A DNA stretch of 64,000 bases from Trichoplax sp. H2. Lineage: Eukaryota. The translations under genes and the position numbers were made by a program. The stretch is taken from positions 124,001 to 188,000 of the forward strand of contig NOWV01000124.1 of assembly GCA_003344405.1 (NCBI GenBank), written 5' to 3'. Below the pieces are notes generated by a model, which was not told the DNA's origin, did not search any database, and worked only from the letters and a program-made list of their open reading frames with translations. Of this stretch, positions 8,941 to 48,356 are shown piece by piece (the stretch's first letter is position 1; every line of letters starts with the position of its first letter).

Positions 8941-10379
8941 ATATAAGAGGATAGTATAACATCAGTTAACTGCAAATAAAATTTGATTCAGGTAATTCGA
9001 TACGTATTCCAGAAATTAGTTTAAATCCTTGAAGATATCAAAGATATGAAAATGTTATGGAAATTAACATTAAAACCTAGATATGAATTATAAAATAACC
9101 CTAATAGTTGAGATTTTTGTGCTTGTTTATGAGAAATGAAATAGCAAATTCTTGGTGGTAAGGTCATAATATATTAGATTAGAAGAGGAAAACTTCTCCA
9201 ATTGGATTATAAGACATTTTGCTAGCACTTATCGAAGGTAATTAAGAAGGATGTGTTGATCAATTCAGCTAAGAAATGGCATCGTCAGACGCGGTTAAAG
9301 CCAATGTAACCGTATCACCGCTTCGTATTATAAACTATAATCGATTCGGAGACAAGCATAATATAATTTAACGGAAGTACGCGAAGAGATAGGTATATCG
9401 CGATTGAGTTTAGATTGCTTTCTATACTGACGTCATTCTTATTGAACAAATAGAAATGCGTTGTTAATAACCAGTGAAAGATTTAATCTATTGATATGTC
9501 TGATAGCACAAATTGAACTGCCAAGATTTCCGATAACATAGTTTTACAACTGTATGAGTATATAAAGAATCTATTATCTAGTTCATAAGCAGAATAGCTT
9601 GCATCTATGCCGATACAATGGACATATAGAGATTGAAAGTCCAAAGTCATTCGCTGTTATTGACTGGAAAAAAATCCTTAAGAAATATAGTACCATCAAT
9701 GAGTCAATCGTTGGTAATAATTAAAATAGCAGAACAACATTTACTTTCTCTTCAAAATATTAATATATATGAATACTGAATTGAAATTGCGCGTAGCAAT
9801 CATTATAAGTACTCTCTGAGCTCTTAATATGCTGTCGAACGGATACTGTAAAAACGGTAAAAACCGTACTGTGAAAAAAATTGAGATATTGTATCAGTGT
9901 CTTTGAGATAAATTAAATCTTCTTCTAATGAACGAATAAATTAATTTAGATGAACCTAGTTCTGCAATCAACTGCCATTATTTCGAAAACGGTTGGAGTT
10001 GCATATAGAACCAACTAATCCTTTTACAATGCATTCGATTAGAGTATCCTCAAGGTTTATGAATTACTGTACTTCAGCAACAACTTTGATTTTATCGTCT
10101 CACTATTGGTTCCGTAAGCTAACTTCCGAGCACAATACCCAAACGGATACGCCTATTTATAACGAAATTAGTCTTTTAAAGAGTATTCTTATTAATTAAG
10201 CGACTGAAATTTAATTCTACATATTCCAAAATTAAGTTGATTTGAGCTCAAAAATGGCCATCAAGAAGCCATTTCACTTTCATTGATCATTCGTGTACTG
10301 TACAGTACTATCATACAGTACAGAATACACGATACTGTAAACTGTACACTGTAACATGCCTTAGGAGAACAAGCCTTCT

Positions 10380-10710
10380 CGTCGGATGGACGGACTTATT
10401 GTACCAAATGAGGCCACCAATGTTAAAAAATGACTACTTCGTACTTACGGTAGTAAGTATGGATCTTCCATGTCTGCTTTCTAAATCTTTGGTACGAACT
10501 TCAATAATACTTACGATCTTATATAGCTATTTCCAAGCAGAAATTGACTAACAGATAATAAGATTCAGTGTAATATTACTTAATTTAGTAAAAATCAATC
10601 AAAACTAAATCGACCGTCTGGATACTTTAGTACCACCATCATAATCCTAACCAAGTGTTTGCCACCATATTTGAACGTGATGAGGCAGAAAGTGTCTGTC
10701 TGTCCAATAG
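10380..10710. mobile_element. Dispersed repeat / putative non-autonomous TIR element, copy A
   Basis: Colinear diverged similarity to 24665-25365 in several blocks (gacggac..gaggcc..aaaatgactactt; tcttccat; caagcagaa; tattactt..aaatcgacc; gatgaggc.gaaa..gtctgtc.gtcca). Ends are inverted: tggacggac versus gtctgtcca. Confidence 0.6.
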
Positions 10711-11086
10711 TGATCCATCCGGGTCTCCATCTAGTGCATGAGTACAGTACAGTACAGTAACACTCTGCAGCAAAGTACTGTTGGTACAGTAAAGTAGAGA
10801 TTGGGTATAAGTGTATAACGCGACAGCGTTACCTTGTAATGTACACTGTGCAGCAACGGCGGATATATTGCAACTGGCGTGAATGCTGTAATGTCCATCT
10901 TTTTTCACAGTTAATTGGTAATTTGATTATGGAGGAATTTCTGCTAGATTGAATAATATGCACTGATATGGCGTTAAGTTGTTAGGCATTGCTCACGATT
11001 TCCCTGTCTGACAATTGATGTTTTAAATTCATGATTCTTATACTCAGATATCTTGAAGTTATTGCTTTCAGTAAGGGAGATTGAAG

Positions 11087-15800: not shown

Positions 15801-18800
15801 CTAGCTTGGAAAGTAAAAGGACAATACATACCCCTGCAATATAGCTTCCAGATGATCTAATACAATGCACACTTAAGCCAATCCCACCAGCAGATTTAGA
15901 AATCAAAGCGCACTGTTTAAGTGTATCATATATACCCTAAAAGTACAATTTCAACCACCCAATTTAGATAATGCTATAGCTAAATGTTGTATGTAGACTA
16001 CATACAGTACCTCAATACTATCATCCGACATTGTAAGTAGAAAACAGCTAGATAATTGAGGTCTGCAGGTACCAGCATTAAAAAGCGTTGGCGAAGCGTG
16101 TGTAAACCAACGTTCGGACATTAAATTATATGTCTGAAAAATCAACTTTTAATGTTAAAATCGCATATCTACTATAAACTAAAATACATTCGACAATTGA
16201 CTGTAATATCTGTGATTAGAATTTTAAGGCTACCTCAATTGCACCATCGATGTCTTCCCCGTGGATACCAACAGAAACACGCATTAACATATGCTGGGGT
16301 CGCTCAGCCACTAATTGTTAAAGAATTTAATCATGATATTAATATACAGCGATTTCATACTTGAATAGCTCCATTTGTAAATGATTTGAATTATTTTAAG
16401 TTCACCTTTTTTATCAATTTTCAACAAATACGATCGCTCTAGCGTCTACATAACATAAGTGTGAATTTGATTATTGAAATATTCTCATTTAAGGCTGTGA
16501 CCGAATAATATGCTTATAGTGATGTGATGTTGGTAACAAAATCAGTAATTGCGATGGAGCCGTTGTAGATCGAAAACTGCAGATTAGTTTATCATTTATG
16601 ACAAAACTTCAATGTGATGAAATATCTTGATTGATTCCTATACATACGAGTATTGTAGTCACATAATTATAAATAGTAGGCTTAACATCAGCATGATTAT
16701 TGCTTCGGTACATACTAGGACCAGATATCACATTCGGTTTAGAAATGTATGATGACTTAAAATCTAAAATGCTACCGCTTGAGCAGTTCAGAGGAACAGC
16801 CATCAATGTAGTTTAGCGAAGTAATAAATTAAAATATCATAATAAAGAAGATATAGTGTAGTATTAACGGCAAGATACACTGTATAGTATACATGCACTG
16901 ACCTTAAAGCCAAAGAAGTTGTAGTTGTAGTCACGATCGTAAATAATTGCAGAATTTAGGCGCTATAGTAACATGAATGTTCATGTGGTGTAAATATTGC
17001 GAAAAATAGAAATGACTGCATACTTTGTAAATAATTACCTCACAATGCTTAGTTATGATTTCGTGAGTTTCTTTAGAAATCATTGGTGAATGCTTGCCAT
17101 TCTTGGGGTTAACATAATTGTATAATTCATCCATGACAACTAAAATAAGGTAAAATATTATATCAGTCATGTTTTAGTAAGATCAAGGTACTCTTAATTG
17201 ATTAACAATTCATTTGTAGCTACAGTATAACTATCTTGCAGATATCATAGTTAACGTACCACTGAAAGTTTTTTTCGTTTCTTTATGCAAATTAGAAACT
17301 GCAATACGAGCAGCAAGAAGCGCATAATCAGGATGGTTTGTAGTCATTGACGCGGCAATTTCAGCGGCCAGGGTATCTAGTTCCACAGTCGTCACACCGT
17401 TATAAATACCAGCAATTACTTTCATGGTTATAGCAGCCTACAGAAGTCAAATTTATGTAAGAGTGAGTTGAAACATACATACGCAAGTCGGCCGTTTCTA
17501 TGCTCAATTATTAATAGAACAAACTACGTAAGAATGATCATCGTAGCCACATGTCAACTAATACATATTTAAGCATTTCTTGGAAAGTAGCCAATTCGGT
17601 GCTACACCGATTAGCCATATAAAAAGAAACATTTTTCAAATTTCAACCATAGAGTTACTAAGAAAGATACTGTATCTATTTTTAGTTTTTGCTTTCAACA
17701 TAAATAATAGTATTTAATTAGATAAATTTTCACTTTTGTTACAGCTACAAAACGATAAGGCATTGAACTAATAACGAAGCAGAAGCGATTGTACAATTGC
17801 ATATACTGCATGACAGACGACAGTTTACTTCATTATTAAAGTATTTTCTTACAGTTTAAGACTCAAAATTGTGAGTCTCCTTACTCATACTCTACTATTA
17901 ACTTGGCTGTTTATTTAAAGCTCTTCTAGTTACGATACAGCAAGTCTATTTTATTTTATCTAGACTCAAAGAAAAGATCGCTTTCCTTGCATAACTTTTT
18001 GATTCTAATTACACATCCTTTTCTTTCCACGATACATTATTTTATTGCATAGTAGTTGTTTTATCTAAGGATGCATTAACCTTGATATTACGATACAGTA
18101 TGAGGGAAAATCTAAATTTCTCCATGCGAATAGCGTATCTGGAAGTTATGTGAAAGCGCTTGAAACCACTCGATAAATCATAATTTGATCTAAAATGTCC
18201 AATCATAAACTATTCCAAAAATTTTCTTCAGCAAGGTGTGAAAGACTGTTTAAATATCGGCGCCAAGTTAATGGCGCCAAAGCGGTCAATCCTTCAGCTA
18301 GAAACAATAAGTGTTTCATACTGTAAGGTACAATACGATGCTAAATGAAACGTTTGGTACACTGTACTGTACCGGTGTGATTTACCTCCACTCGTGCAGT
18401 GCAGTACAGTATGTTTACGGTGCAGAGATTGTTGCGAGTTGATATTTGGGATCAATTTCTCCTGTCTGATCTACAACTTTACTACAGTAATGCAGCTAAT
18501 GCTTATTCATCTTTGCCAGTTTACAGTACTGTACTTAACTACTCATTAATACAGGCGGACGTGGAATGTATTTGTAGGGGATTAAAAAATCGCACCTTTG
18601 TCTCCCCCCTACAAATCATGCTATAAATTCCTCATACATGGCATTAAACTACTTGCAGGCAATCCAATTTAGATGAAATTATGCTGTAGAAAGTACAACG
18701 TGGCAAGTTCACTTTGGTGTTTTGCACTGGTTCATCCTCGATGATAGATTTCGTCAATTGTGCTGCTGAAAATATTACTTGTTGGACTGACAATGGTATT

Positions 18801-19256
18801 GAAACAGTGAGTAGCTAAAAATACATGGAGAAAGATACTGCAATCTGATCTAAGAAATGTTACGCTAGTTAAGATCACGAATATGTGTCATTGGTGAATG
18901 CATCATGATAAATAATACTATAGTATGATTGAAGTTGCTAACAAGTCAACAAATTGAAGCAATTTTGTACGCTAGTGCGATTGCCATTAGATAGTCCAAC
19001 TTACCGGATCGACATGGTCGTTGTTTAAATTGTAGCAAAGCTTGGATACTCTGCTTGTTATTTTGTCAAACATGACTTTTTCCTTTCGACCGTCTAAAGA
19101 GAGAAATTGTATAAATGCATTTGGATTAAGTACGCCGACTTGGTCGTTGTACGAATTACTCTAGTCTAGATCGCTTCAATGTTAGCATTCATCCACATTA
19201 CTGCCAATTAGAAAAGTCATTGTAGCATGCTTACCTCTTTTAACGACATACATCAT
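12877..19256 (-). CDS. RRM1: Ribonucleoside-diphosphate reductase large subunit (class Ia R1), multi-exon
   Basis: Exon 1 19235-19256 (MMYVVKR), exon 2 19005-19093 ([16 protein letters not shown]), then from 17437 [26 protein letters not shown]. Internal motifs [56 protein letters not shown]-terminus ACLMCSG* with stop at 12877-12879. Introns are canonical GT-AG. Confidence 0.97.
16743..16805 (-). ncRNA. Intronic H/ACA guide RNA hairpin, predicted to target U6 snRNA U31 (SNORA79/ACA65-like)
   Basis: Lies in an RRM1 intron (16447-16902) on the sense strand. Lower stem TGATGGCT/AGTCATCA, pocket GTTCC / TTTTA, upper stem TCTGAA/TTTAGA, ACA box 14 nt after the top of the pocket. The pocket is complementary to conserved U6 UAAAA-U31-U-GGAAC. 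Confidence 0.72.
18249..18281 (-). promoter_or_regulatory. Tandem E2F-type sites with a CDE/CHR-like arrangement in RRM1 intron 2
   Basis: Minus strand reads TTTGGCGCCA (18272-18281), then TTGGCGCCG followed closely by TTTAAA (18249-18254). CpG-containing motifs are rare in this background and RRM1 is a known E2F target gene. Confidence 0.55.
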
Positions 19257-19529
19257 GGTGATTTGTAGCTGAAAGAAAATTCAATGGGGAAAAAATGAAT
19301 TTTTTTCAGTGAATTGAAGGCTAGTTAGTGTCTACAAGTTACTACACCAAATCACGAATGGCCTGCGAGCAATCTTTCGTAGCCAAGAGTGAGCACTTGT
19401 TGCCCCGGTCGGTTCAAGCCTTTTATACGTATATCAGGTGGGGTTGTACCGTACAGCACGTCAGCCTCCCACTGCCGTCCTTAGTTACCATGTTTTGCCT
19501 CATTTTCACTCAATCACTGACTCAGCCGT

Positions 19530-19810
19530 TCTGCATACTACAGTATACTGTACTCTACACGTACTGTACACTGTACTGTACAGTACTGAAGCTTGACTTT
19601 TACAATACTGTACACACAGTACAGTATTGTACAGGAAGTTTTATTTTTGCCTCCAAAAACTGAAGTTGGCGCCTTAAACGCGTCCACCAATCATCTTTCG
19701 ACTTTATATGCATAATCATGTTGAATCACGATTGGACATTGAACAAAGAGGCATTGTTGTTGGATAGCAAGACGGTCCGATACGGTATAGTCCGGTACGG
19801 TACGGTATAT
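19530..19810. promoter_or_regulatory. RRM1 upstream promoter region, possibly bidirectional
   Basis: TACAGT/ACTGTA cluster at 19535-19632, E2F-like TTGGCGCC 19666-19673, ACGCGT 19678-19683, oppositely oriented CCAAT boxes at 19687 and 19731, and CGGTA repeats 19773-19807. Confidence 0.55.
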
Positions 19811-19899
19811 TACTCTAGTTCCAACTGGTCTATGCTACCCAGCTCAAGTAGTCATGCAAGTTATAACATTTGCAATCCAATTTGCTTGCTTTACGAAAA

Positions 19900-22800
19900 A
19901 TGATGAAAGTCATTAAACTCCAATGGAACTCCAACGGATCCATTGTAACTAAAGTAAATAAATTAAATTAACAGTTCAATATTGTTGCCGTATAGCCCAA
20001 AATAATCCACTTCCCCGATGAAATGGTAGCCAATGAATCTGCGATGTTGTTGTTCGTTCACATTCTTACTGTATGGTATAGGTTAGCCAGCGGAATGTCA
20101 GCCGGGCTTTTCTACACAAAATGTGTCAATCGATGACTTTACGCAAAAATATCCCCAGTTTAGCAGTATTCTCCGTTGAACCATGATGGTATTACCCCCC
20201 TAAAATCGGCTTCTACTGTATGTCTATAGATAAGAGTAGATGTAGTCATCGGCTTAAGCAACATGTCAAACTATAGCAATAACAAATAAATATTTCCAGA
20301 ACAATCTGCAGGAGACATGAAACTGCAAACAATATCCCCCCATTGCCGGCGATGTTCAAAGTTCTTGGTGTCAAAATCTCCCCACAATGCAGTCGTCCTT
20401 CTTCAACAAATAATCATCAAATCAATACGTAACATGACATTAGTTGCAATTCAATGAAATACATTATTCCGTTGCATGCCTTATTAAATTGACGTCCGTA
20501 GCCGTAGGTAGAATGGATTAAACAATCACTTGGTGGAAACAATATTGTATCGTATCACGAGCCTAACAGTTAATTATTGTGTCAATACAGTATTCAAGAA
20601 AAACGGACGTCTCGGCGGTTTTCTTGAATTCTTACGAATTGATGCATGTATAGAGTAGAATGGACAGTAATCAACAATACTCGATCAACCTATTATTCTA
20701 GTGTACGTTAATTCAAGTTCTATTGCTCTACAGAGAAGACTTTTCACTAAAGAGTCCACCCTTAATGCACAATAAGTCTGAACGAAAGGCCAAATGTGAC
20801 CTTTTTACGTTATGTATTACTTTAGTTTGTGAAAACAGTATTGTCAATCAACGAGTGGACCATCGGATACGATACAGAATAACCTACTCCTATACTGTTT
20901 ATATAACTTGCAGCTATCGAAGAGACTAAATAGCCGATCTCGAATTTCCATCTTTCCCATTAGTCGTAAAACATTTTCTATGCTATAACAGTCATAGATT
21001 CATGATTGAGTTATTCATAACTCTCCACGAATCTTCCCCAGTGATCAACGCACGAGATTTTAGTCCAATTGTAGTAAATGATGTAAAGCATCATACCACT
21101 TGTCGTCAATAGTCTATCATCATGATATAACCGTCAGTCATCCAGATTATTATGGCGTTCCACTATCTATGTCATGCATTCATACATTTGTTGCATTTTA
21201 TACGATTAGCGAATGGCATAGTTTTGGCAATATTGCAATAAGAATTATAAATTAGCGAAACCAGTGGAAATTCCACGAAATATAGTACGATTTGAAGTTA
21301 ATCGCATTAATATAATTTGATTATAACTGGAATCAATAATAGTGTGCTTATTATCATGTCCAATTGATGTTAACTCTTCATTGAGCTTTGTGTTAACTTT
21401 ACCACAACATTTTCGGCTAGCAAACTTTTCGCGATGAAAGGCTTCACGAAGTCTAATTACAAATCTAGTGGTAGTACGGGCAATCGTCAACCTACGCAAA
21501 GTATTTCATGCTATGATAAAATGACTAAATGAATAGCCTTCAAAAGTCAAGTTATGCGACATCTCTTCCTATTTTGCAACGATTCTGTCAGGTTAAATAA
21601 AATTCGATTACAAAATCAGCATACAGTACTGTAGTTTACCATTATCATCAGCACTCTATTGTTAGTATGCCATTAATAATCTCTGCATATTGTACTGTAT
21701 ATTCGGTATATTCCGATGCTATCAGTAATAATTAGTCAGAGTTTAATGCTGACTAGATATCAATAACAAATTTAGTGATACTACATCATTCTATTAGTAT
21801 AACCTGTCCCGATAGTGCAGTAGCTGCAATAAAAGCTAATAACTACTAGAATAGCAAGTCCCTGATCATTCATTTACCTATTATTAAATGCTCTAATCAT
21901 TCCATGCAGGTCATAAAGTACTGCTGCAACTACTAGAATAGCAAATCCCTGATCATTCATTCACTTATTATTATTAAATACTTCAATCATTCCATGCAGG
22001 TCATAAAGTATTGCTGCACTTTCCTTTTACAACAGATTTTATTTTAGAGCACGAGAGTAATAATAGAAACAGAAATAATTGTCATTTAGATAGAAGTACA
22101 AGTGGTTCACTTTAACGAGCAAGTGAAAGACTGTGCTACCACAGTACGCGATTCAATTTTATATTTATCGTTGTGGCTATAACTCATTCACTAGCTTACG
22201 GAAAATGTAAGTATCATCAGCGATATGTCGACCAATGAGCCGACGAACGCAACATATTCCGGTATTATTGAAGAGTAAACACACAACATACACGTATGTT
22301 CCAACCATTGAGGTAAATGGAAAGAACTCTATGGTTTCAACTTCCATTTACAGAGAGCTCTTTCATGGGGCTATCACCTTCAAAGTTTGCTGCAGTAATA
22401 ACAAGTAAGAATTTTGTTTGCACACTACCGTACGCATTGCACTCGCAAATGAAGTCTTATTGTATTAAGCCAGCAAACTAACATTCATCATGGTGCACAT
22501 AACATTAGCTTAATCAAATTTTCCTATCGATTAACATGCAGTATGAATTAAGTAATGCTACGGAATCTTATACCATGAAAATAGCGATAACTACAAATCA
22601 CTTGATTTGATTTCGCCAATCCTACACAGCAAGTAAATCATCCTACAAAATTAATAACTGTAAACTAGACGTACGGTACTCTACCGGCTTCAGCACGAAA
22701 GGTGTGCAGGTATTCCTACATTTGCATAAAGTAAAATTGCCCCACAAGAGTAATAAGTAGAATCGTTTGAGAAGACCACTAGCGAATACCGTAAATACTT

Positions 22801-24580
22801 TATTTTAAAATTAGAAGTCAACACCATTAACTGCTATCACAACTTATCATGTCAACTCGTATATTGTAGTTGTTGCAGTAGATAAATATGTTACATAAAA
22901 GTAGTCTTGAAATGTTTTCATATAATGATTGCTGTAGCCTGTATAGTAAAGTCAAATTACGTCATCATCGTAATATATCATGTTAAAGATTTAATGACCA
23001 AATTTAAGCCACAATTACCCGATAGGCGATGTGCTGGTACTGTATAGTTTAGTAAGAAATTAATTAGTTCATTAGTTGTACTTGTCTATAGATCATACAA
23101 CCAGATCTTCATCAGTGCATGGCTACTCTCGTATTTCGTTAACGCTAATTAACGTATGAATCCTCTTGCTGAATCCTGTTAAGCAATTTCACGTCTACCA
23201 ATTCGTGTGCAATAGAATTGGTTAAGTTTCATACCTATTTGCCTTGACTTGCAGCTCTAACATTTCATTTTCACGAAGTAAAGTAAACGCATTCTATGGG
23301 AAAGACGCAGATGTACTGTATATAGGACGTAAAGATGTTGAAAAACATTTAAGTAGTGTTCTACTTATCGTCTATTCAGCCATAACTATCAAATTTTATG
23401 AAGTCCAACTTTATTACAGATGATCCTCGCACAGGACAACAGTTACTGGAAGATAACAAATCCGAAACACAACTATCATAGACTCCTTGATATTTTAATG
23501 TAGTGTACTTTACCGTCAATCAAATAATTAAGCTATTACAGATGCATCAACGAATAAGATAAAAGTTAGAGGAAAATAACAAATTAGCAGCAGAACTATC
23601 ATAGACTCCTTGATATCTTACTGTATTGTGCTTTACCATCAATCAAATAATTAAGCAGTAAAACAGAGTCAACCGTCAGTTACAATTATTTATCATTAAA
23701 GACTTTTAGTTAGTTCTTATCCATTTGCCTCGATAATCTGATATGCTTAATTACAGTATCGTTGCAATTGGCTCTGACTGCAGTCACTGCACCACTCAAA
23801 AGCATCGTAAGCCATCTTGTAGATCCTATTTTACTAATCAAACAGCACTACAGTAGCACGATATGCATAATATCTTTTCTATTTACTACGATATAGAGCT
23901 AAAGGAAAGAACAAAATGAATACTTTTTCATTCCTGCCTATCCATGACCATCTACACTATCGATAACCGATTCGACTCCTTTTCCAATTGTTTTCAACAA
24001 TCACTACGGAGCTTTTTGATATCATTTTGCACTTGTATTTCTAGTTTCAACTTTCTCAAGTAAGCGTATCATGGCAGACTCGATCGAATATTCGATCTTG
24101 TTGCTTGTCATCACAAACATCAAACATGTCTATGAAATCATTTTGTGTGCAATAAACGGGGCTACAAACATCAAGATGAATTCTGTGTAGCATGGAAGAC
24201 ATTGCACTTACATTTTTTTACTGTCCCTGCTTGCTTCAAGAGAGTTGCACATAAGAGCAAACATGCCGCGCAATCCTCCAAGTTTTGCAGGTAATTAATG
24301 CCAATTGGACACGAGTGATGCTCCTTTTGTATAGCATCGGATGTCCAAAGCACAGTACGCTTTACCAATCTGTCGACGCCTTACTATTCCCTATATCACG
24401 TTGACTTGAATTGTACAGTAGGTTAACTTACTATCATGATCACGCCGAGGTCGAACGTGTCACCATCGAACAGTTCGTGCGTGCTTCAACACGTTCCAGT
24501 CGACCGTTACTCGGTGTCACTGTCCCACAGGGTGACGGTGATTCAAAATTACGTCATGGTTACTCGAGTACCGTTCCATC
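19900..24580 (+). ncRNA. Candidate large, highly structured non-coding RNA divergent from RRM1 (boundaries approximate)
   Basis: No credible ORF or exon chain over about 4.7 kb. Many local stems, multibranch junctions, long-range helices and pseudoknots are visible by eye, and most wobble pairs are G-U on the + strand (A-C on the - strand). Transcription is not demonstrated. Confidence 0.5.
21841..22017 (+). repeat. Two-copy tandem duplication, ~88-bp unit
   Basis: aactactagaatagcaa.tccctgatcattcatt...aatcattccatgcaggtcataaagta.tgctgc occurs twice in direct succession. Confidence 0.9.
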
Positions 24581-24664
24581 CGTATGTCCGTATGCCATCA
24601 TTCATACGTATGATACCATACAGTACAGTACAGTACAGTACTATACTGTACTAACTATAGTTTT

Positions 24665-25365
24665 GAGATATAGACAGACGGACACTGGTTTCCAACGGAG
24701 GCCTTCAATATCGGAAAATGACTACTTAATTTGGTTCTTCCATCTCTATTTTCGAAATCATAAGTACTAATTTAAAATTGCGTTTACAGTCTTGACTGGA
24801 TCAACATCAACATGCGATTCCCCTACATTACATGTATAAAATACGATACAGCAGATTCCAATATTATACTTGTAATATAGGAGAGTCGTACAATATTGAT
24901 ATTGACACAGTCGATTCTAACCATATCGTATTTGCGAATTTGTATATTGATCCTAAAACTCTTTTCAAGCAGAACTTTGTAGCAGATACAGTACTCAATT
25001 AAGCAGTATCCTTCAACGTCTACTCGCAACCCGACTTGAGGGCAAGATTCGGGTTAACCATTTCTGTGGGTGATACAGTGTTTGTAGAGCGATTGCACTC
25101 GTTTCGGGTTCGAAAATCAACAATTTAATCGAGTTCGGGTTGCGTTTTCACTCCATTGCAGGACTCTGAAATTAAAGTTAAGATTCAATCAATGTACGCT
25201 GCACTTGAACACCATGACTGCACAGTGCACAGTAGTATTACTTCATTTAAAAAACATCAGCCAATTCAAAATCGACCATCCGAATAGTAAAGTACAGCCA
25301 TAACACGGAGGTTAGGTACAATATTTTGACGGGATGAGGCCGAAAAGGTCTGTCCGTCCACGGAT
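24665..25365. mobile_element. Dispersed repeat / putative non-autonomous TIR element, copy B (longer)
   Basis: Shares ordered blocks with 10380-10710 and has extra internal sequence. Inverted ends agacagacggac versus gtctgtccgtcca. Confidence 0.6.
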
Positions 25366-26175
25366 GATCTGGTTCATAGTTAGTTAGTACGGTTGAACAG
25401 CAAAATAGAGTAGTCGGTCTACACATCGCCATTACTGCATGATGGAGTAAGAGTAGCAGTACAAGTTCTAAAGATGACTGATTCAGATTAATGAGAGATA
25501 CATATAAATTCAGAATGTTTTATAACCTACTAGATAAACTACAACAGGAGCAACTATAGCTGGCAGAAATCGATTTAATTTTCCTTCATCATATTTATTG
25601 ATTTCCTAAATGTAAGATATTACATACCAATATAGTAATCACGGTAGTAAATACCACTACTGAGGTATAAACGGTAAAAATTGCCACCTCAAAATAATTA
25701 ATTTATTCCTAATTTAACAATTATAATGATAACATTGATCGACAATATGAAAATTAAACAGCTTTATCCTCCGAATACAAGCATTTATATTAGTAAACAC
25801 AATAACGCCTCCAATCGAGACTCATTAACAAGCATAGACTGCTGCCGTATACTCAGATAAACAATGCTAAGAAAAATAGTAACTGTTAGATTATTCAATG
25901 CAACAGCATTGGAAATATTAAATTATTTTACTTCTTTTGTAGCCGTCATTTAAATGGCACGATTAAAATTTACAAAACGCTTTGCAAAACCTATCTTTCA
26001 GCAAACTATTCTATAATATAATTAAAAGTTTTATCTTTGCCTTAGGCGTATTAATTAGTTCGATGCGCTATCGTACTTTGCGCTAATTGTCGAAACAAAG
26101 GCACTTAGCCAGTAACAATCGACTACAATATATTACAATATTGTAAAAGTATCAACTGTTTTTTACATAAGCCAG

Positions 26176-29100
26176 TTAAACATTAAATTCCGATACTCTC
26201 CAAAACAATACTGACAATCCTTTGGTATTTTTAGGTAATTTTTCATCATCCAATTGCTGCTTGGAACTATTCTTAAAAGTTCGGCAGCCACGACCACAAC
26301 TCACAATAAACACACTGGCAACTCCTTCAGCATAAGACGCACTATCATCTTTGCCATGACTACTACATCTTGACAGCGTTGGAGAGTCGAAACGGCAACC
26401 TGACCCTGCGTCAGATGTATCACTATCATATGCTGATGTGGTAATAATAACACTAAGCATATCGACGGAACCATAATGACCGCAACTGAGCAACGTTATG
26501 GGAGGACATTGTTCCAAACAAGATGTAGTGATCGTAATATTAGGTAAAGGTAAATTCAGTATAGCTCCCATATTAGTACCAATCCATAATAAATCATTGT
26601 AGACTAAAAGCGAAGTTACTTGAATATCATTTCCCATATCGTAGAGACTTTGCATGCCGTCGCTATCGATACCTAATAGTTATTAATTAGTCAGCAGTAA
26701 GTAATTTAATAGAAAGATAGCAAAAATGTAACAGCCATCTTGTATCAAACTAACCTGATAATACATCTGGAGCTGTATCGATAACTAGTAAACGCTCGTA
26801 ACTAATTGCATGAAATAATCGAAGAATGGAATTGCGCGAAAAAGAGACCCAAACACCGGTCTTGTAGTATATCATTTTATCAATTTTACTATCTTTCTTA
26901 ACATTGATGATAATACTTGCCTAAAGAACACATTCAACATCCAGTAAATCAAGACATTAAGGATAGCGATGATGCAAATTTACAAGAAATTGCCCTTGTT
27001 AATATCGAATAACCGCAGTATGTGCAATATCTACGCGCTGCTTACCTCTATAGATAGTGTTTCAATGTTGATGACTTTTATATTATTTTCGCAGCTACAC
27101 CAGATAGTATCTAGGGCGTCGATCATATACGTGATTGGAGTCTCAAATAAATGTATTTTAACAGCGTCGTGATTATCATTATTCCCAGATCCTAAAATAC
27201 ACAAAAAATTCGCGTCAACTATTCCAATACTGAAATTAAAAAAAATGAGCTATATTCCAGTTTAAGCCTATCTCTAGTTACCAAGATTATATACAAGAAG
27301 GTTGCCACTTGTTAATGACAAAAATACTCTATTCTTGGTATATCTACAAATAGATAAAAATGATTAATCAATAAAAGCCTAATACACGCCACTACTGCAG
27401 TATAAATACTTACAATAATTTATTTAAATTAATTAATTACGGTATGAATTGCTACTTACAGGATAGCAGTTATCGGTGCATCGTGCTGAAATATCACTTC
27501 TTTCTTTTGATCCTTTAAATGGCAACTTAAAATGCGAATACTATTACAGTGATAATTATAATAGTACCGACACAAATAAAACGAGTTAGAAGTGACGACA
27601 AATACACAGAAAAACGGTAACATTTTTTAAAAAGTTTTGCAATCCAACTCACCTCCCATTGTTTAAAGCTATCCATAACGTATTTCTTCCTTCCATATCG
27701 TCCAACCAGACGAATAATTCTTTTGTAGTATCATCCAATGAACCATAGTATGACTCTCTATCGGTATTCAATTGGGGTGATGCAGGTTCACGATCTGTAT
27801 AGTATTTACTCAATTGGCTTAATTTTAAGGATTCATTACCAAATGAATCTGGCGCATTAACTTGATTATGTGTCGTAGATTTCGCATTGTCTGCTAATTC
27901 ATTTAATGAATTTACACAATTAAAGATCTTTTACTTTGTAGTCAAAATAAAAATTTTGTAATCATCATTGAATGAAGCAAAACTACTCTACCTTCAATAG
28001 CATTAACTGCATTTGGTGTCTCGTCTGTCGATGAATTCAACTCTGAGGATGTATTTCTTTCCAAGTCATCTTTCATCGCGTTATCATCATTTGAATATGT
28101 TATTTCCATGAAGTTATTGCTAGGCTTACAATCGGCTTCAATGGTACTGACAATAATTTTGTCAGCTTGTACAGTGATATGAGGCTCATTGAGTGATGAT
28201 AACGAGTTGTTATCGTCAGTTATAGATGTCTCAATGGTTTCAGTACGATTACTTATGGAATCGACTTGGAGCTCTTTAACACTTTTCGCATGATTTAAAT
28301 TTGCTATCTTTACAATATCATTTGTGAACTGATCATTGCTATCCTCTGTCATATGTATGTTCGATCTAAAATTTAAATTGAAAGGTGCACAGGCTAACGA
28401 AGTTACACTTTCCTTCATGTCAATCACCTTATTGCATATAATCTGATCAGATTTTATAGAGAGACAATGAATTTCAGTCCTATTGGAATTGCCAAGTGCC
28501 ATCCATACAGCGCTATTCTTGTGTAAATCCTGTGTACTTGATCCAGTAATATTATAAATCATTGAATTGGCCCAACGAATTACCTACATGTAGTAGATAA
28601 TATTCAGTCACCAATACTGTCTTATCATACAGCAATGACAAAACTACTATACTGTTATTAGATGTTATTAGAATCATTACCTTTAAATTTTCTTGTTCAT
28701 TAACATCAGTATTTGGAAATTCCCAAGTACGGTCCAACTTAGGCAGTGCTTTTCTTTCCTCATCGTCATCTATGCTCTCTAAAACATCAGCAAAACTCAT
28801 TCCTTGAGCAACATTGAGCTAGTTACGTTGCTAATTACACATTTATTACCTAGACGCTTTAAAAGATCCGCAAAATCATATTTCCATGATGATTTGGCTT
28901 CAGGAGATTCAAAAGAGAACGAAAAAGTTGCTTCACTACCATCCCTAATCCAACCAAATCCGTGAAAAAATCAGTGCATCAAAATTAAATGTAATCGCCT
29001 CTTAGTCACTTAAGATGTTCTAGAGTATTTACCGGAAATTGATAGATAATTCTACCAGTGTAAATAGTAGACCGGAAGTGTTTTGTTTTTGCTCCGCCAA

Positions 29101-32100
29101 TTGATGCTTTTCCAGCAGATTTGCAGCTTGTTGCAATTTTTGCGCTAAATCTTCCGTTAGCTTCTGTGAGCAATGCTGCAGTTCCTATTAAAAGCATGCC
29201 TCGAATTAGCTGGCAGTATAACGAACAGATAGAACCAAAGAAACTGATTTAACAACCTTATGGTTGCAGTTAAGAGACTCAGAGAGTGTAGTAATTTGCC
29301 GCATAATATGTAAATCATGTTCAATTTCTTTTATTGCGCTCTTATCAGTCAATATACGAGAATTTTGCCCTACTGTTGCAGTTGATGGCGCTAAATAAAT
29401 AAAACGATAGATAGCATTTTTAGTAAATCCCTACAGGCTACGCGTATTATTGACGATTATTTTATTTTTCCAAAGTTACTATTACGATCATTGCATACCT
29501 TGACAAATGCTTATATCTCGCAAAGGCGCCATCCATTGCAGCCTATACTTAAATGTCTCACCGGAACTCATTCTTTGCATTAAATCGATATTGAGATAAA
29601 GTAGTTAATGAAGTAGCCTAACAAGCGATCTGAAAAGTTAAACTGTGATGATACCGTAAGTCTATACCTTTTAAATGTGCCAGCTCTCCGCTTAACAACA
29701 CATACCAACAGATCGGAAAAGAGAATTAAACTCCTATCCTTCCTAACTATACCTTTGCCCTTATTAATACATATCGAAAGACCGAAAGGTTAAAAGTATA
29801 GCCAAAATTAAGCTAAAGTAATCTAGTAGACTTACCAATTCAGATACGTTATCGCGTCTTATAAAGTGTCTTCCTGGTGATGCAAGCTATCCATATGAGA
29901 CAAACAATGAATATCAATTTTAATAATTGAGAATCACACTCGTAGAAATGTCGCTAGTTTCTACATACATGTGGAAAACCATCGATAAGGATTTCAATAT
30001 CACGAATTTTCTCTTCTTCCTTTTTATGCCTTTCCCTTTCTACTTTAACTTCATTCATAGAATCAGCAAGCTTTCGCAACTCTCTTAATGCAACCTTTAA
30101 ACTATCGTAATCGTGATGTGATAGAGGCGTATACTTTAACAATTCCTAATAACAACAACTTTATACGTCAATATTCAGTCCATACACAATAAGATTGAAT
30201 AATTTGTCAGCAATATGCAAGAAAATTTATCCAAGATAGATAGCTCTAGCTTCAAAAAGAATGGTCACCTTAAGCACCAAAACATATCGCGGGATTCTCT
30301 GAACGGGCATAATCATAAGATCTTGTAACGTTAATTTTTCTTTATGTTCTTTAGCACATACCTAGTAAATGACGCGTAAGATATAGACAATACGTCTTTA
30401 AAATTTCAATCTTGACTTACTTCTAAGAACTTTTGGAATCCTTCATTTGATGAATAGGCAACTGCTAATGCTTTTCTAGCTCTTGAAAAATTTATAATAA
30501 AGTTACTGTAGGCGTTAACCAGGATAACCTTGGTAAACTAAAAAAAAGCAAACCGATCCTATTAGTAACAAGTAAAACAGTACGAAGTAACGAGCGGATA
30601 ATAATAATTTTTAAGAATAGCTCATTGCCAGAAAACAAGTAAACTGTTAAGTAACATACACTTTGAAGGAATAAATCTCCTATCCTCCTTTTATTGTCGC
30701 TAGTTTCTATTCGACGGGCCAACTGATCGAGGAAAAAATCATGACACAACAAAATTTCCGGTACTTGATAGAATATGGCATTGATTAAGTTCTTATTAAT
30801 GACGATGTTATTGCTAGGATCCTTAAGAGTATTATAATAATCCTACAAAATACGGAATATGATCATCCAAAAATGTAAAAGCAATATATATTGCAGATAG
30901 GTGATTAACGCATAAATCTGATCAAGGTTAAACCAAGAAATTACATTCTACTAGCAATTTATCCTGCCTAGGTACATGTTACAGTACGTCAATATAGCGT
31001 AAAGTAACAGAATCTTTTGTAGTAAAAGTATCAGTTATCAACTGTAACTCATCCTATTTATACTTTACTTTAATTTACTTTAAGTGGTCCTTTAAATACA
31101 TTAGTAACAGAAATTGTCTTTTTCTTTAATTAAAATTATCATGTGATACTAGTAGTTCAAAAGTTGTCGAGATTCACAATAAGTTAATTCATTAATAAAG
31201 TATATAACAGTAAAAATCTTAATGTGACTTATATGGATAAAAACATGGATTAATAGTCACATGCCGTATACCTGCTTCAATGTCCGGAGAGCTGCTACGT
31301 AATTTATTTCTGTTTCTAAAAGATTTTGTAAGATATAATGTCTAGTATCCTTGAGAAAATAAATAAGAAAATTTCAGTAAGCAGGTCGTATCACTGATCT
31401 TTTCCAATTCTACGCTGGTAATCAAGATGTACCTCAATAGAGCTTATTGAGGTCGCAGCAACTGAATCCTCAGTGTTTTTATTGGTCTTATCATTTCCCA
31501 TATTTTTAATATTTGGATCTAACGGTGGTGGAGTGTCAGCAACATCATCTTCTTTTGAGTGTTGCTTTTTTGAAGTTAGTATAGGACTGCTGCTACTTGA
31601 ATTTGTCACCGAACGACCAGATACACCATGAAGAAGTATTTTACGAATCGACGGTCGTGATTTCAATTTGGGATAATGTGTTGGCACCTTAACGGCGTCA
31701 TCATCAAGAAGCAGTTTAGCTGAAAGAGCTTTAGTAAGTTTCTTATGTGTATAACTCAATGGAGAGCCTTTCTTATTTGGAAGTAAAGCTAAATCTTCTG
31801 CACTTTCAAATTTGTGAGATTTATGTCTACGACTGCCATTTCTGATTTTGGCATCAGTAGTATTGGTATCATGGGAACCATTATTTCGAATAAATGCGTT
31901 TGCATCTCCGAAACTACCACTGGACCTCATTATATCATCAACAGGTTGAATAATTGCTTGACGAGGTACTTGATAATCGTCAGTTGTAGTATCAGCTTGA
32001 GCTCGATCTCTTAAATTGTTTTCTACCGGTTTATTACTTCTAATATCGCTAGGTACACAATAATAATGTTCCTCATCGACTTGTTGTTTCTTTACTTTGC

Positions 32101-32555
32101 CGTTAGGTTCTACATCTGTTTAGGGGAAAAAATAGAAATACGCAATAGTTTTATTGATAGTTCAAGAAACTATTCAATTATAACTTAATCGTAATCTAGA
32201 GTAGCAAGTTGTCAATATTATCTTTCCATTTTATCAACAAGTGAGTGAAAACTAGTTGTGCTTCAGCAAGTAATTACTTACCTAATTTGCTGTATAATTT
32301 GTGGCGTAACGTAGGACTTGTATGCGCTGAATGAGACTTTTCTTTAGGGATCTTTTTCGATAGTAATTGGTTAGCCGAACTTACAATTAAGGAATCGGAT
32401 ATTAAACTCCTTCGATTATGTACTGCTTGTAATACTTTATCACGTCGAATTTTATTCTTGTCAGAAACGTCCAATGATTTTCTATTTTCTGCCTGATTTA
32501 CTAATTTACTATCGTCATGGCGTGCTCTAACCGAATATTTGGAGTACAATCCAAC
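26176..32555 (-). CDS. ARHGEF17: Rho guanine nucleotide exchange factor, ARHGEF17/ARHGEF10 family (DH-PH plus C-terminal beta-propeller-like region); well-supported core, 5' exons lie further upstream
   Basis: Spliced DH domain DTRHYILQNLLETEINYVAALRTLKQ..AIFYQVPEILLCHDFFL..FTKVILVNAYS..KEKLTLQDLMIMPVQRIPRYVLVLKELLKYTP. PH domain RHFIRRD..KDRSLILFSDLLVC. C-terminal repeats VWVSF, LLWIGTNMG, GHYGSV, FIVSCGRGC, VLFWRV. The DH sequence looks closer to ARHGEF17 than to ARHGEF10. Confidence 0.88.
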
Positions 32556-33399: not shown

Positions 33400-34860
33400 C
33401 GGCTTCCATGGCTAGCATATATCATCAATTCGGTCGTCATGAATATTAGAGTAGGCAGGCCATTTTACAGTTGGACTTGCATGCCTGGATAGAGATGGAC
33501 AGGAAGAAAAGTCCTCATTTCGAGGTGTTGCTCATGAATTGTCCACAGTGAGGGCTGTATTACTGACAATCTTGAAAGTTTCTCGTTATCAAATCGAGGC
33601 ATAAACTACATTAATGGCTAGCAAAGAGTCCATAATAACGTTAGTGGTCATTGATGTCAGAAATCAAGGATATTTTCCATTTAAACCTACATTCACTAAC
33701 AAGGGTGTAAAGTGATTCTATAAAATCGTCATCTTCGTACCTACTATATGAATGAACAGTGATGATATTCCTTTCCATTATCTCCCTTTTTATCAACTTA
33801 TGGAATGCATTTTCGAGTCACAGATATCAGGAGAAGACAAACTTTCTATTTCAACCCACATTTTACTTTACTGTACTTGTAGAAAGAATTGGTAAGGATA
33901 AAAATTGTCGTTTGCTAACTATTGAAGTTCATTTTCGACATGTTGCTGGCGATTTCCTGTATGAATCAACAGTAGCGATATTCCTTTTACATTATCTTCC
34001 AAGTGCCTTGTTATCAAATTATGCAATGAATTCCATCGTCATGGATATCAGAAGAGAAGGAAATTTTCGATTTCAATCTACACTACTTTACTCTACACGT
34101 AGATAGGATTTGACAAGGATAAAATCATCCATTGCCCGTTACTCAAGTCCATGTTTGATATCTTACTGATTACCTACAGTACGAATCAACAGCGAAAATA
34201 TTACTCTAGGTCTATCTAGAATTTGATTGTCATCAAATCATAACCTCTTTCGATGGCTAGTATATTGTACATCATAAATTGTGTAGTCATTGACATCAGA
34301 GTAGAAGGAAATTCCATGTTGAAACCTACATTAATGGACGATAGAATGGATTGACAAGGATAACGATTGTCCTTTTCCATGTGTTGCTGACTACTTATTG
34401 TAGGAATCAACAGCGAGAATAGAACTGGGCATGTTGATGGTCATCGAATTAAAGAATAAACGCTTTCCATGACTAGTAGACATCATCTATTCCCTTGTCA
34501 TCTATATCGAAGGAGAAGGGAATTTTTTCCAGTATTTGAACTTGCATAACATGAAGAAATACCAGGAATTGACAAGGATCAAAGTCGTGATTGGCTCACT
34601 ACTTGCTGTACGAATCGACAACCAAGGTAAAGAATCAACTCCTTGGGTAGCTAGTAGACATTATCCATCCCGTAGCCATCGATAGTCGAGAAGGAAACTA
34701 ACTTTGCATTTGAACCTCATGACTACACTGTACCGTAGACGCATCCATCGACAGGATATTGCCGTCCATGTTGAAAGATTATCGTTATCAAACTAAAGGA
34801 ATACGAGTAAATTCTTTCCAGAACTACATCATCGATTCGGTAGTCATTCATATTACAACT
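33400..34860 (+). repeat. Old degenerate tandem repeat, ~200-bp unit
   Basis: Recurrent block catcat..attc..gtcat.gatatcaga..agaaggaaatt..ttgaacct..ttgacaaggata near 33420, 33640, 34030, 34280, 34490 and 34670. Confidence 0.65.
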
Positions 34861-34989
34861 TGATTAATGTTGATGTGATTGTTTAACAAGTATATCTCCA
34901 CTATGCAAGGTCGATAAATCAGTCATAAGTTTGTATTTCTAGCTATGCGACTTAACATCATTCCTCTATCCCTAACACCTCAAAGAGCA

Positions 34990-36730
34990 TCGATATGATG
35001 ATCGATGGCCATATTGGATAGTAGGTCATCACGATAGGTTACGTCGTGGCTAAAATAAAAGTTACTTCCAGCTATGCTATGCTACTACAGCCAAGATCGT
35101 TCCTTTAACTACAACATAGTAAACAGACTCGACGATCGTCATGCTCAAATTAATAAGTCAACACGATTGGCTACATCGTGGCTAAAATCAAAGTTATTTC
35201 CAGCTATGCTATGCTACTACAGCCAAGATCATTCCTTTAACTACAAGTTAGTAAACAGATTCGACAGTGGCCATATTGGATAGTAGGCCATCTAACCACT
35301 ATATAGTAAACAGACTCGACGATGACCGATCGCCATGTTCAAATTAATAAGTCAACACGATAGGTTACATCGTGACTAAAATCAAAGTTATTTCTAGCTA
35401 TGCTATGCTACTACAGCCAAGATCATTCCTTTAACTACAAGTTAGTAAACAGATTCGACAGTGGCCATATTGGATAGTAGGCCATCTAACCACTATATAG
35501 TAAACAGACTCGACGATGACCGATCGCCATGTTCAAATTAATAAGTCAACACGATAGGTTACATCGTGACTAAAATCAAAGTTATTTCCAGCTATGCTAT
35601 GCTACTACAGCCAAGATCATTCCTTTAACTACAACCTAGTAAACAGACTCGACGATGACCGATCGTCCTGTTCAAATTAGTAAGTCATCACGATAGGTTA
35701 CATCGNNNNNNNNNNNNNNNNNNNNAACTAAAGGAATACGAGTAAATTCTTTCCAGAACTACATCATCGATTCGGTAGTCATTCATATTACAACTTGATT
35801 AATGTTGATGTGATTGTTTAACAAGTATATCTCCACTATGCAAGGTCGATAAATCAGTTACAAGTTTGTATTTCTAACTATGCGACTTAACATCATTCCT
35901 CTATCCCTAACACCTCAAACAGCATCGATATGATGATCGATGGCCATATTGGATAGTAGGTCATCACGATAGGTTACATCCAAAGTAAAACATATTTATA
36001 ACTATGCTAATGCAGTACAGATCATTCCTCTATCTACAACATCGTAAACAGACTCGACACGATAGCCATCTTGGATAGTAGGTCATCACCAACGGTTTAC
36101 ATTGTGGCTAAAACTTATTCGTGGAAATGCTAGTACAGTAAAAGATCATTCTTCTATCTACAACATCGTCAACTGACTTGACACGATGGCCATATTGGAT
36201 AGTAGGTCATCACGATAGGTTACATCGTGGCTAAAATCAAAGTTATTTCCAGCTATGCTATGCTACTACAGCCAAGATCATTCCTTTAACTACAACCTAG
36301 TAAACAGACTCGACGATGACCGATCGTCCTGTTCAAATTAGTAAGTCATCACGATAGGTTACATCGAGGCTAAAATGAAACTTCTTTCTAGCTATTGCTA
36401 CTACAGTAAAAATCATTCTTCTACCGACAACATAACAACTAGACTCGACGATGACCGACCATCATGTTGATATTAGTAGATTATCACCCTAGGTTGCATC
36501 ATGGCTAAAATAAAAGTTCATTCTAGCTATGCAGCTACAGTAAAAAATAAAAAACATTCCTCTATTTGTAGCTTTACAACAGAGCAAACAGACTCGATAT
36601 AATGGCCAATCGCCATGTTGATATTGGTAAGTTAGGATGATAGGTTACATCGTGACTAAACTAAAAATTATCTCTAGCGATGCAACCACAGTCAAGATCC
36701 TTTCCCTATCCCTTAACACAGTAAGCAGAC
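34990..36730 (+). repeat. Tandem satellite array, ~120-bp core unit with higher-order variants, interrupted by an assembly gap
   Basis: Repeated gataggttacatcgtggctaaaatcaaagttatttccagctatgctatgctactacagccaagatcattcctttaactacaa..gtaaacagactcgacgat, with near-identical copies in 35150-35705 and degenerate copies toward 36700. Confidence 0.92.
35706..35725. other. Assembly gap (20 N)
   Basis: Run of n characters inside the satellite. Confidence 1.
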
Positions 36731-47981: not shown

Positions 47982-48356
47982 AAAAGTAAAAAGTAAGGAA
48001 TCCAATTTCCGCCATGGATTCCATAAAGCAAGGCGTTGAATTTCGTCGTCTTATCCAAATACTGTAGCCATGTCATGACTATTTTATCATTTGCTCGCCA
48101 TGTATTGAAAACAATCAAAACAATCCTATTTTAATATGATGATAAGATAGATAGAAACGATAACGATAAAAAAAGTAAAAAGTAAGGAATCCAATTTCTG
48201 CCATGGATTCAATAAAGCAAGGCGTTGAATTTCATCGTCTTATCTAAATACTGTAGCCATGTCATGACTATTTTATCATTTGCTCGCCATGTATTGAAAA
48301 CAATCAAAACAATCCTATCTTAATATGATGATAAGATAAAGAGAAACGATAACGAT
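47982..48356 (+). repeat. Two-copy tandem duplication, ~189-bp unit
   Basis: aaaagtaaaaagtaaggaatccaatttc.gccatggattc...aatatgatgataagata..gaaacgataacgat occurs twice, nearly identical. Confidence 0.92.

Follow-up and report, generated by a model that had tools for sequence, protein, structure and literature searches.

The lincRNAs and the PROMPT or upstream-antisense RNAs of animals form a class of intergenic or promoter-upstream non-coding transcripts. In the SRG1–SER3 type of arrangement of yeast, upstream non-coding transcription in tandem modulates the downstream promoter. In placozoans, Mutator insertions are reported to be frequent at housekeeping promoters, with a loop-anchor motif in their terminal repeats (PMC12221973). 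Catalogues of lncRNAs are reported for sponges (PMC4540969, PMC4707743), and no placozoan catalogue is present among the matches listed for the Trichoplax lncRNA literature.

The region studied here, positions 19900–24580 of a 64-kb stretch of Trichoplax DNA (the window, that is, the whole stretch analysed), is a single-copy, AT-rich, non-coding intergenic spacer with a GC content of 0.34–0.39. The genes on both sides of the approximately 5-kb spacer lie on the minus strand, with a RhoGEF/PH/WD40 gene to the right and RRM1 to the left. The RRM1 coding sequence starts with the ATG at 19256, and its exon 1 ends with a donor at 19235 (19235–19256, minus strand), as read from the sequence and from a joint 19093>19235 with CT..AC ends in sequencing run X5; Pfam detects Ribonuc_red_lgC and ATP-cone on the downstream exons. 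The 3′ end of the RhoGEF/PH/WD40 gene, comprising the last exon and the 3′ UTR, occupies 25570–26679 on the minus strand, with a match to WD40_2 (Pfam, E = 1.6e-11) on 26179–26679. An X5 contig stops at 25574, a minus-strand AATAAA is located at 25594–25599, and the poly(A) site of this gene is near 25570. The region is very probably an ordinary intergenic spacer of this kind, transcribed without splicing and no more structured than sequence of the same dinucleotide composition.

The spacer resembles the lincRNA and PROMPT class in being transcribed and unspliced, in lacking an ORF, in its low-to-moderate abundance, in its position beside an active housekeeping promoter, and in showing no detected conservation or structure. 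It differs in that a strictly divergent origin is unsupported, as a contig bridges the proposed promoter. With the large structured non-coding RNAs (rRNA, RNase P/MRP, group II introns, telomerase RNA and Rfam families) it shares only its length and the lack of an ORF, whereas it has no Rfam match, a plus-strand folding z-score of approximately 0 at 150, 300 and 600 nt, and tandem duplications inside its body. The SRG1–SER3 arrangement would be matched only by a minus-strand RNA, with an upstream start running into the RRM1 promoter (contig 19475–20064); the distance here, approximately 5 kb, is far larger. The Mutator-derived elements of PMC12221973 are resembled in that a cluster of a high-copy motif lies at the RRM1 promoter and at a second promoter-like patch, and in that RRM1 is a housekeeping-type gene, but the spacer lacks a transposase as well as long terminal repeats, and its body is single copy.

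The original prediction had read the region as a highly structured, approximately 4.7-kb lncRNA on the plus strand, transcribed head-to-head with RRM1 from a CCAAT promoter acting in both directions. A structured non-coding RNA is expected to have, on its transcribed strand, a folding energy clearly below that of dinucleotide shuffles, to exceed both chance and neighbouring DNA in the number or length of its stems, and to match a curated covariance model. Minimum free energy (MFE) z-scores against dinucleotide shuffles were determined for each strand in segments of 150 nt (30 shuffles), 150 nt with an offset, 300 nt and 600 nt. On the plus strand, the mean z of the candidate at 150 nt is −0.06 (n = 30), or −0.19 with the offset (n = 31); at 300 nt it is −0.10 (n = 15) and at 600 nt +0.06 (n = 7). 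None of the 30 segments of 150 nt falls below a z of −2 on either strand. The 150-nt controls from the rest of positions 1–38100 (n = 223) have a mean z of −0.21 on the plus strand and −0.15 on the minus strand, against which the candidate gives MWU p-values of 0.62 and 0.31, respectively; the plus-strand controls reach −0.22 at 300 nt (n = 47) and +0.33 at 600 nt (n = 8). Excess secondary structure is therefore absent from the plus strand, which behaves like shuffles and like the rest of the window at 150, 300 and 600 nt, an outcome that the prediction itself had named as refuting it.

On the minus strand, the mean z at 150 nt is −0.18 (n = 30), or −0.48 with the offset (n = 31). At 300 nt it is −0.50 (n = 15), compared with −0.05 in 47 controls (one-sided MWU p = 0.054 before correction), and at 600 nt −1.21 (n = 7), compared with −0.19 in 8 controls. 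This tendency is faint and weak, and is not significant after correction for eight tests, yet it is not zero. Folding energies clearly below those of shuffles were thus found on neither strand, and neither differs significantly from the controls. Segments of 150 nt have an average MFE of −23.7 kcal/mol on the plus strand and −28.8 kcal/mol on the minus strand.

The strings from which stems had been drawn are real: all 15 are present at the places cited, with ATGGCATAG starting at 21213, one base away from the cited position (~21212). The stems are not almost continuous beyond expectation, as had been proposed, with 47 perfect stems of at least 7 bp within 150 nt, where a set of 194 dinucleotide shuffles gives 45.5 ± 6.8. 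Stems of at least 8 bp (18 versus 11.9 ± 3.2) and at least 9 bp (7 versus 3.2 ± 1.8) are approximately 2 s.d. above the shuffles, but are no more numerous than in control segments. Eight other 4.68-kb pieces of the window contain 51–105, 15–26 and 3–8 stems of at least 7, 8 and 9 bp, respectively, such that the candidate ranks lowest of the nine pieces for the shortest class and mid-range for the other two; an excess over both chance and neighbouring DNA was found in no class. The five hand-picked examples have z-scores of −2.10, −0.80, −0.67, −1.78 and −3.39 on the plus strand and −1.48, −0.95, −1.50, −2.23 and −1.55 on the minus strand, which are modest values given a choice from 4.7 kb; the value of −3.39 belongs to a 28-nt GAAA hairpin at 23333–23350 and, together with the reality of the quoted stems, speaks for a structured plus-strand RNA.

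The strand preference of the wobble pairs is the reverse of that described, since G–U-tolerant stems of at least 9 bp number 66 on the plus strand and 100 on the minus strand. The GC skew of the spacer is −0.10 on the plus strand, and this excess of C over G accounts for both the surplus of G–U stems and the lower MFE on the minus strand. Eye-picked stems in AT-rich DNA and an apparent G–U strand asymmetry thus arise from base composition alone, and the stems seen here would be the chance yield of 4.7 kb of such DNA.

Rfam gave no match at the gathering score in the 64 kb, and at a permissive threshold only two sub-threshold matches in 19300–25700, both outside 19900–24580 (mir-101, 25.2 bits versus a gathering score of 60; MIR6217, 20.7 versus 110). 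The candidate therefore matches no family and no curated covariance model. Elsewhere in the window, ARAGORN places a single ‘tRNA-Asn’ within a tandem array (39668–39752); this call has no Rfam support and is irrelevant to the spacer.

The absence of a credible ORF, as originally described, is borne out. Sixty-one stop-to-stop frames of at least 40 amino acids overlap 19500–25200, the longest wholly inside the region having 86 amino acids (21245–21505, minus strand), and a 121-amino-acid frame at 24405–24770 lacks a Met. None of the six read-through frames of 19850–24750 has a Pfam match at the cut-off. An unannotated protein-coding gene, encoding a micropeptide or assembled from several short exons, could draw on the best-supported transcribed unit (23427–24297), in which the ATG ORFs reach 48 amino acids. 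However, a search among proteins of 26–84 amino acids gave no homologue of the 48-amino-acid ORF, the RNA contigs follow the DNA colinearly, and, repeat artefacts aside, no splice joint lies inside 19650–24600 among the joints listed, so that no spliced transcript joining exons into an ORF was found among them. Such a gene is exceedingly improbable; a coding signal is absent from the spacer.

RNA cover was read from assembled contigs of sequencing runs, which carry no strand and differ from the window by less than 1%. The RNA kind of X5 is a guess from its record, and X15, which comes from a different study, is declared as RNA. In X5, RRM1 is represented by a spliced contig (depth 184; four joints with CT..AC ends), and the depth is zero in three bins, 17601–18701, of the RRM1 intron that this contig splices out. 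Across the spacer, colinear unspliced X5 contigs span 19475–24245, with pieces at 19475–20064 (depth 14), 20479–21168 (15.8), 21374–21865 (7.2), 21950–23315 (25.7) and 23427–24245 (64.6), and all 14 bins of 19436–24573 are non-zero. X15 contributes pieces at 23649–24001, 23997–24208 and 24179–24297 at a weak depth of 4–7, which counts as no higher than that on RRM1 intron pieces (3–4.5). Together the two runs place 19475–24297 under colinear contigs that do not give a strand, and single out 23427–24297, likewise strandless, as the unit with the highest depth and with cover from two studies. X15 is without cover over most of 19803–23472 and X5 has gaps between the pieces listed, neither of which was counted as absence. 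The spacer is thus present as RNA, as judged from contigs only and with the kind of X5 guessed from its record. Of the highly structured non-coding transcript originally proposed, transcription is supported by X5 and weakly by X15 (23649–24297), and the non-coding character stands, whereas the high degree of structure fails.

Carry-over of genomic DNA into the libraries would also produce such cover, and the guessed kind of X5, the equally low X15 depth on RRM1 intron pieces and 23649–24297, and the behaviour of X4 are in its favour; X4, with a similar share of words (0.59), is DNA-like, having a flat depth of 5–14, a covered intron and no RRM1 joints. In X5, however, the intron bins 17601–18701 are empty and the intron is spanned by a contig joint, whereas 14 of 14 candidate bins have depths of 7–65. 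This nine-fold range contrasts with the flat profile of the DNA-like run X1, and the segment covered by X15 is the deepest segment of X5. Carry-over is accordingly a very unlikely source of the signal.

The cover also bears on the proposed start of a plus-strand transcript. CCAAT boxes are indeed present in both orientations upstream of RRM1 (CCAAT at 19687 and ATTGG at 19731), and they and the RNA contigs over the region are consistent with the original reading. However, X5 contig 19475–20064 crosses the proposed bidirectional promoter and, although strandless, is a poor fit to a clean head-to-head start near 19850, which is therefore not supported. Plus-strand AATAAA signals at 19957, 20285, 21596 and 21828 would tend to cut the transcript short, and the uneven depth (7 to 65) is unlike that of one single transcript. 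With plus-strand z-scores at zero on every scale, stem counts at chance, G–U stems favouring the opposite strand and Rfam without a match, a structured plus-strand lncRNA is extremely unlikely.

A minus-strand lncRNA that is unspliced and functional is unlikely, but several features of the profile favour it. It would start in a patch at ~24300–24600 and run towards RRM1 in tandem from upstream, with read-through as a possible means of modulating the RRM1 promoter, and might have weak structure. The putative promoter, at 24301–24600, is marked by the palindromic CCAATTGG (24301–24308) and a local rise in GC (0.393 in 24001–25000), and adjoins a sharp fall in X5 depth, from 64.6 to 8.7 between bins 23840–24206 and 24207–24573. 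This fall, at 24245–24300, lies beside the palindrome, the GC rise and an (ACAGT)n cluster, a combination that recurs at the RRM1 promoter. Leftwards, the depth steps down through 64.6, 25.7 and 7.2; minus-strand AATAAA signals at 23410 and 22038 lie near the left ends of the pieces with depths of 64.6 and 25.7, a third (22799) is inside the latter, and contig 19475–20064 enters the RRM1 promoter. Any folding tendency is confined to the minus strand, on which G exceeds C in the spacer as in both flanking minus-strand genes.

On the other side, the contigs are strandless. The contig ends are off the expected distance from the hexamers, with 23427 before, not after, the signal at 23410, and the depth rises again to 14–16 left of 21200. 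The RRM1 intron has almost no GC skew (−0.015), which makes skew a poor strand marker and weakens that argument, and the folding tendency is not significant. Contig orientation was rejected as a guide to strand: the five listed candidate pieces of X5 are ‘+’ and its RRM1 and RhoGEF-gene contigs ‘−’, yet contigs of the same genes are ‘+’ in X15. The poly(A) hexamers and the GC skew are suggestive of the minus strand at best, and are not decisive. A fuller version, in which such an RNA from a second, RRM1-like promoter patch (~24300–24600) would read through approximately 5 kb into the RRM1 promoter and couple or gate RRM1, with a real, if weak, minus-strand folding bias, is unlikely.

The spacer is bounded by two (ACAGT)n repeat clusters. 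The RRM1-proximal cluster, at 19539–19640, is of a type that is high-copy in the genome, as seen by TRF, 7-mer clusters and X1 depth (3046 in bin 19436–19802 versus ~70 elsewhere, with heterogeneous loose ends), and it contains the sub-threshold mir-101 look-alike (25 bits versus 60). The distal cluster, at 24617–24650 (X1 depth of 8336 in bin 24574–24940), is 95% complementary over 19 nt to 19570–19588. Similar microsatellites occur at 10295–10781, 21623–21698 and 50224–50316. Joints 1958x>2462x that skip ~5033 nt were considered as a deletion or circle and rejected: their sides measure only 18–24 nt, lie in the high-copy repeat and carry many different inserted letters, and the joints are mapping artefacts of (ACAGT)n.

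The inverted 19-nt arms, at 19570–19588 and 24621–24639 and 5032 nt apart, could be taken as the ends of a decayed, non-autonomous Mutator-like transposon at the RRM1 promoter. The high genomic copy number of the end motif agrees with this, as would the reported frequency of Mutator insertions at placozoan housekeeping promoters (PMC12221973) if their loop-anchor motif were (ACAGT)n. However, the arms are a recurring, near-palindromic pentanucleotide microsatellite, for which an inverted match is expected by chance, and no longer terminal repeat was found. The six frames of 19850–24750 contain no transposase, remnant or Pfam family. The body is single copy, with a flat X1 depth of 69–99 compared with 66–74 in the flanks, and no second copy elsewhere in the 64-kb window. 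Such an element is highly improbable.

The spacer looks unconstrained. It contains two local tandem duplications, of 90 nt × 2 (21841–22018, 89% alike) and ~122 nt × 2 (23412–23656, 83% alike), and X1 differs from the window at 27 positions in 3957 nt of the candidate, compared with 21 in 2470 nt of two RRM1-body contigs (16500–17991, introns and exons 3–5; 18009–18986, intron).

On the preferred reading of an ordinary transcribed spacer, the DNA gives rise to an unspliced RNA without a meaningful ORF, most abundant over ~23430–24300, that represents intergenic, promoter-upstream or lncRNA-type transcription at a modest level. We infer that this RNA is a by-product or an ordinary lncRNA without a structure-based function. 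For an early-branching animal, a densely structured 4.7-kb RNA outside the known classes would be remarkable, but the evidence does not back one. For annotation, the locus offers an unannotated non-coding transcript unit near 23.4–24.3 kb and a possible promoter-like patch near 24.3–24.6 kb.

The highly structured RNA of about 4.7 kb predicted at 19900–24580 is not a real feature; the real part is a single-copy, non-coding spacer that is transcribed and unremarkable. The eukaryotic DNA of the window is AT-rich, with a GC content of 0.28–0.42. To the left lies RRM1 on the minus strand (ATG at 19256), whose exons match Pfam Ribonuc_red_lgC (E-values of 2e-20 and 1e-16) and ATP-cone. They are spliced in a contig of X5, a run taken from its record to be RNA, at 16962>17039, 17139>17260, 17436>19004 and 19093>19235, with CT..AC intron ends corresponding to GT..AG on the minus strand. 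To the right, a large minus-strand gene (25570–32500) encodes Pfam RhoGEF, PH_19 and C-terminal WD40_2 domains, an ARHGEF10/17-like architecture; its mRNA contig in X5 stops at 25574, approximately 20 nt beyond a minus-strand AATAAA (25594–25599). Because both flanking genes are on the minus strand, the candidate is a spacer that separates the RRM1 promoter from the 3′ end of its upstream neighbour. The RhoGEF/WD40 mRNA, ending at approximately 25570 in X5, reaches approximately 25162–25310 in X15 (a library from a separate study, declared as random-primed RNA), which suggests alternative poly(A) sites. Just past this 3′ end, the depth of the DNA-like run X1 is 373 (24941–25307) and 140 (25308–25674) versus approximately 68 elsewhere, suggesting a dispersed repeat or transposon fragment; no second copy was found within the window.

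The folding energy of the plus strand, proposed to be highly structured, is indistinguishable from that of dinucleotide shuffles at 150, 300 and 600 nt, the outcome that the original prediction had itself named first as counting against it. In non-overlapping 150-nt windows (30 shuffles each), the mean z-scores on the plus and minus strands are −0.06 and −0.18 for the candidate (n = 30) versus −0.21 and −0.15 for controls from the remainder of 1–38100 (n = 223); none of the candidate windows falls below −2, versus 9% and 8% of the controls (MWU p = 0.62 and 0.31). Candidate windows offset by 75 nt (n = 31; candidate only) give −0.19 and −0.48, with one window below −2 on the plus strand and three on the minus strand. 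The corresponding means are −0.10 and −0.50 at 300 nt (n = 15; controls −0.22 and −0.05, n = 47), and +0.06 and −1.21 at 600 nt (n = 7; controls +0.33 and −0.19, n = 8). The minus strand shows a small but consistent tendency to fold better than shuffles, which grows with window size and is strongest at 600 nt. At 300 nt, its one-sided MWU p value of 0.054 fails correction for the eight strand-by-scale comparisons, and the tendency is a weak, unexplained and non-significant lead.

All 15 of the sequence strings quoted in the original prediction are present where it placed them, as are both CCAAT boxes; the structure read from its stems did not hold up. Perfect inverted repeats within 150 nt were counted in 19900–24580, in 194 dinucleotide-preserving shuffles and in eight control segments of 4.68 kb. 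The candidate has 47 stems of at least 7 bp (shuffles 45.5 ± 6.8, mean ± s.d.; controls 51–105), 18 of at least 8 bp (11.9 ± 3.2; 15–26) and 7 of at least 9 bp (3.2 ± 1.8; 3–8), making it the lowest of the nine segments for short stems and unremarkable for long ones. The claim that wobble pairs mostly work as G–U on the plus strand only is reversed, with 66 G–U-tolerant stems of at least 9 bp on the plus strand and 100 on the minus strand, which also folds approximately 5 kcal/mol lower per 150 nt; both differences arise because the plus strand has more C than G. The five showcase hairpins have plus-strand z-scores of −2.10, −0.80, −0.67, −1.78 and −3.39 and similar minus-strand values, as expected for the best five chosen from 4.7 kb. 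No Rfam model reached gathering score anywhere in the window. A permissive threshold added only two miRNA-like matches below that score; both lie outside the candidate, and a palindromic (ACAGT)n repeat (19531–19598) accounts for one of them. By energy, stems and Rfam, the candidate does not belong to any structured-RNA family.

The absence of a credible open reading frame was confirmed. The longest stop-to-stop frame fully within the region has 86 aa, and a 121-aa frame at 24405–24770 lacks a methionine. A Pfam search of six frames of 19850–24750, with stops read as X, found no family at cut-off (sole entry 13.4 bits, E-value of 0.084).

X1 behaves as genomic DNA, with flat depth, covered RRM1 introns and no splice joints. 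Its depth over the candidate (69–99, versus 66–74 in the flanking genes) identifies a single-copy sequence and rules out a high-copy transposon; no resembling sequence was found elsewhere within the window. A recognisable transposon is likewise rejected, as there is no transposase, the region is single copy and the 'arms' are microsatellite only. Two young local tandem duplications are present, at 21841–22018 (90 nt × 2) and 23412–23656 (approximately 122 nt × 2). Between X1 and the window there are 27 differences over 3,957 candidate positions, and 21 over 2,470 in two RRM1-body contigs (16500–17991, introns and exons 3–5; 18009–18986, intron); these give no sign of special constraint, at a divergence (<1%) that affords little power.

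Partly palindromic (ACAGT)n-type pentanucleotide clusters mark the RRM1-side edge (19539–19640) and the other edge (24617–24650), with further clusters at 10295–10781, 21623–21698 and 50224–50316; across the window the 7-mer is found 44 times, versus 7.6 expected, grouped in five clusters. Genome-wide, the repeat is present in very many copies, with X1 depth reaching 3046 and 8336 in the edge bins versus approximately 70 elsewhere, and with heterogeneous loose ends. Joints skipping approximately 5033 between the edge clusters are repeat artefacts, with sides of only 18–24 nt and varied inserted letters. The clusters lie in GC-richer, promoter-like patches. Placozoan housekeeping promoters are described as often bearing Mutator-derived terminal repeats with a chromatin-loop (loop-anchor) motif (PMC12221973), to which the clusters may be related. 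Distinct tandem arrays (34791–36700, 38859–39931, 40996–41585, 42509–43397, 47979–48356, 49307–50191 and 51214–51539), with periods of approximately 32/65, 61, 78, 135/194, 148, 163 and 189 nt, occupy much of 34.8–51.5 kb, where GC reaches 0.40–0.42 and a 20-N gap lies at 35706–35725. An 85-nt tRNA-Asn(gtt) called by ARAGORN inside the 32/65-nt array (39668–39752, minus strand) is probably a false positive, because no Rfam tRNA match reaches the gathering score.

To the extent that contigs can reveal it, the spacer is transcribed, as had been proposed. X5 covers all 14 bins of 19436–24573, in pieces at 19475–20064 (depth 14), 20479–21168 (15.8), 21374–21865 (7.2), 21950–23315 (25.7) and 23427–24245 (64.6), all colinear with the genome; no splice joint inside the region is among those listed. 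X5 depth here spans nine-fold while the adjacent 1.57-kb RRM1 intron is empty (zero in bins 17601–18701) and joined across by the contig of spliced RRM1 (depth 184), a pattern that contaminating DNA does not produce. Judged by their word shares (0.57 and 0.56), two sister runs of X5 probably have matching cover. X15 covers only 23649–24297 (depth 4–7), the deepest segment in X5, with a trace in bin 20537–20903 (mean depth 1.6); its support is weak because it also covers RRM1 intron pieces (depth 3–4.5). X4 behaves as DNA and adds no support. The best-supported transcript unit is approximately 23.43–24.30 kb; the longest ATG open reading frame within 23380–24320 has 48 aa, with no homologue among proteins of 26–84 aa.

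Contigs carry no strand, and the arguments on this point are indirect. They lean against a plus-strand transcript starting at the CCAAT region, head-to-head with RRM1: the X5 piece 19475–20064 spans that region, plus-strand AATAAA hexamers occur at 19957, 20285, 21596 and 21828, and depth peaks at the far end, dropping sharply at 24245–24300. This drop adjoins a patch that resembles the RRM1 promoter region and comprises a CCAATTGG palindrome, a rise in GC and the second (ACAGT)n cluster. Transcription starting there on the minus strand and ending near minus-strand AATAAA at 23410 and 22038 would account for the leftward depth steps, but contig ends fit the hexamers imperfectly and depth climbs again left of 21200; a third such hexamer (22799) lies within the 25.7-depth piece. 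The minus strand has about an even chance of being the source, the plus strand is a distinctly less probable one, and several units on both strands are unlikely. No placozoan lncRNA catalogue is among the literature matches listed. In its likeness to intergenic or promoter-upstream non-coding transcription, the spacer works like the ordinary case.
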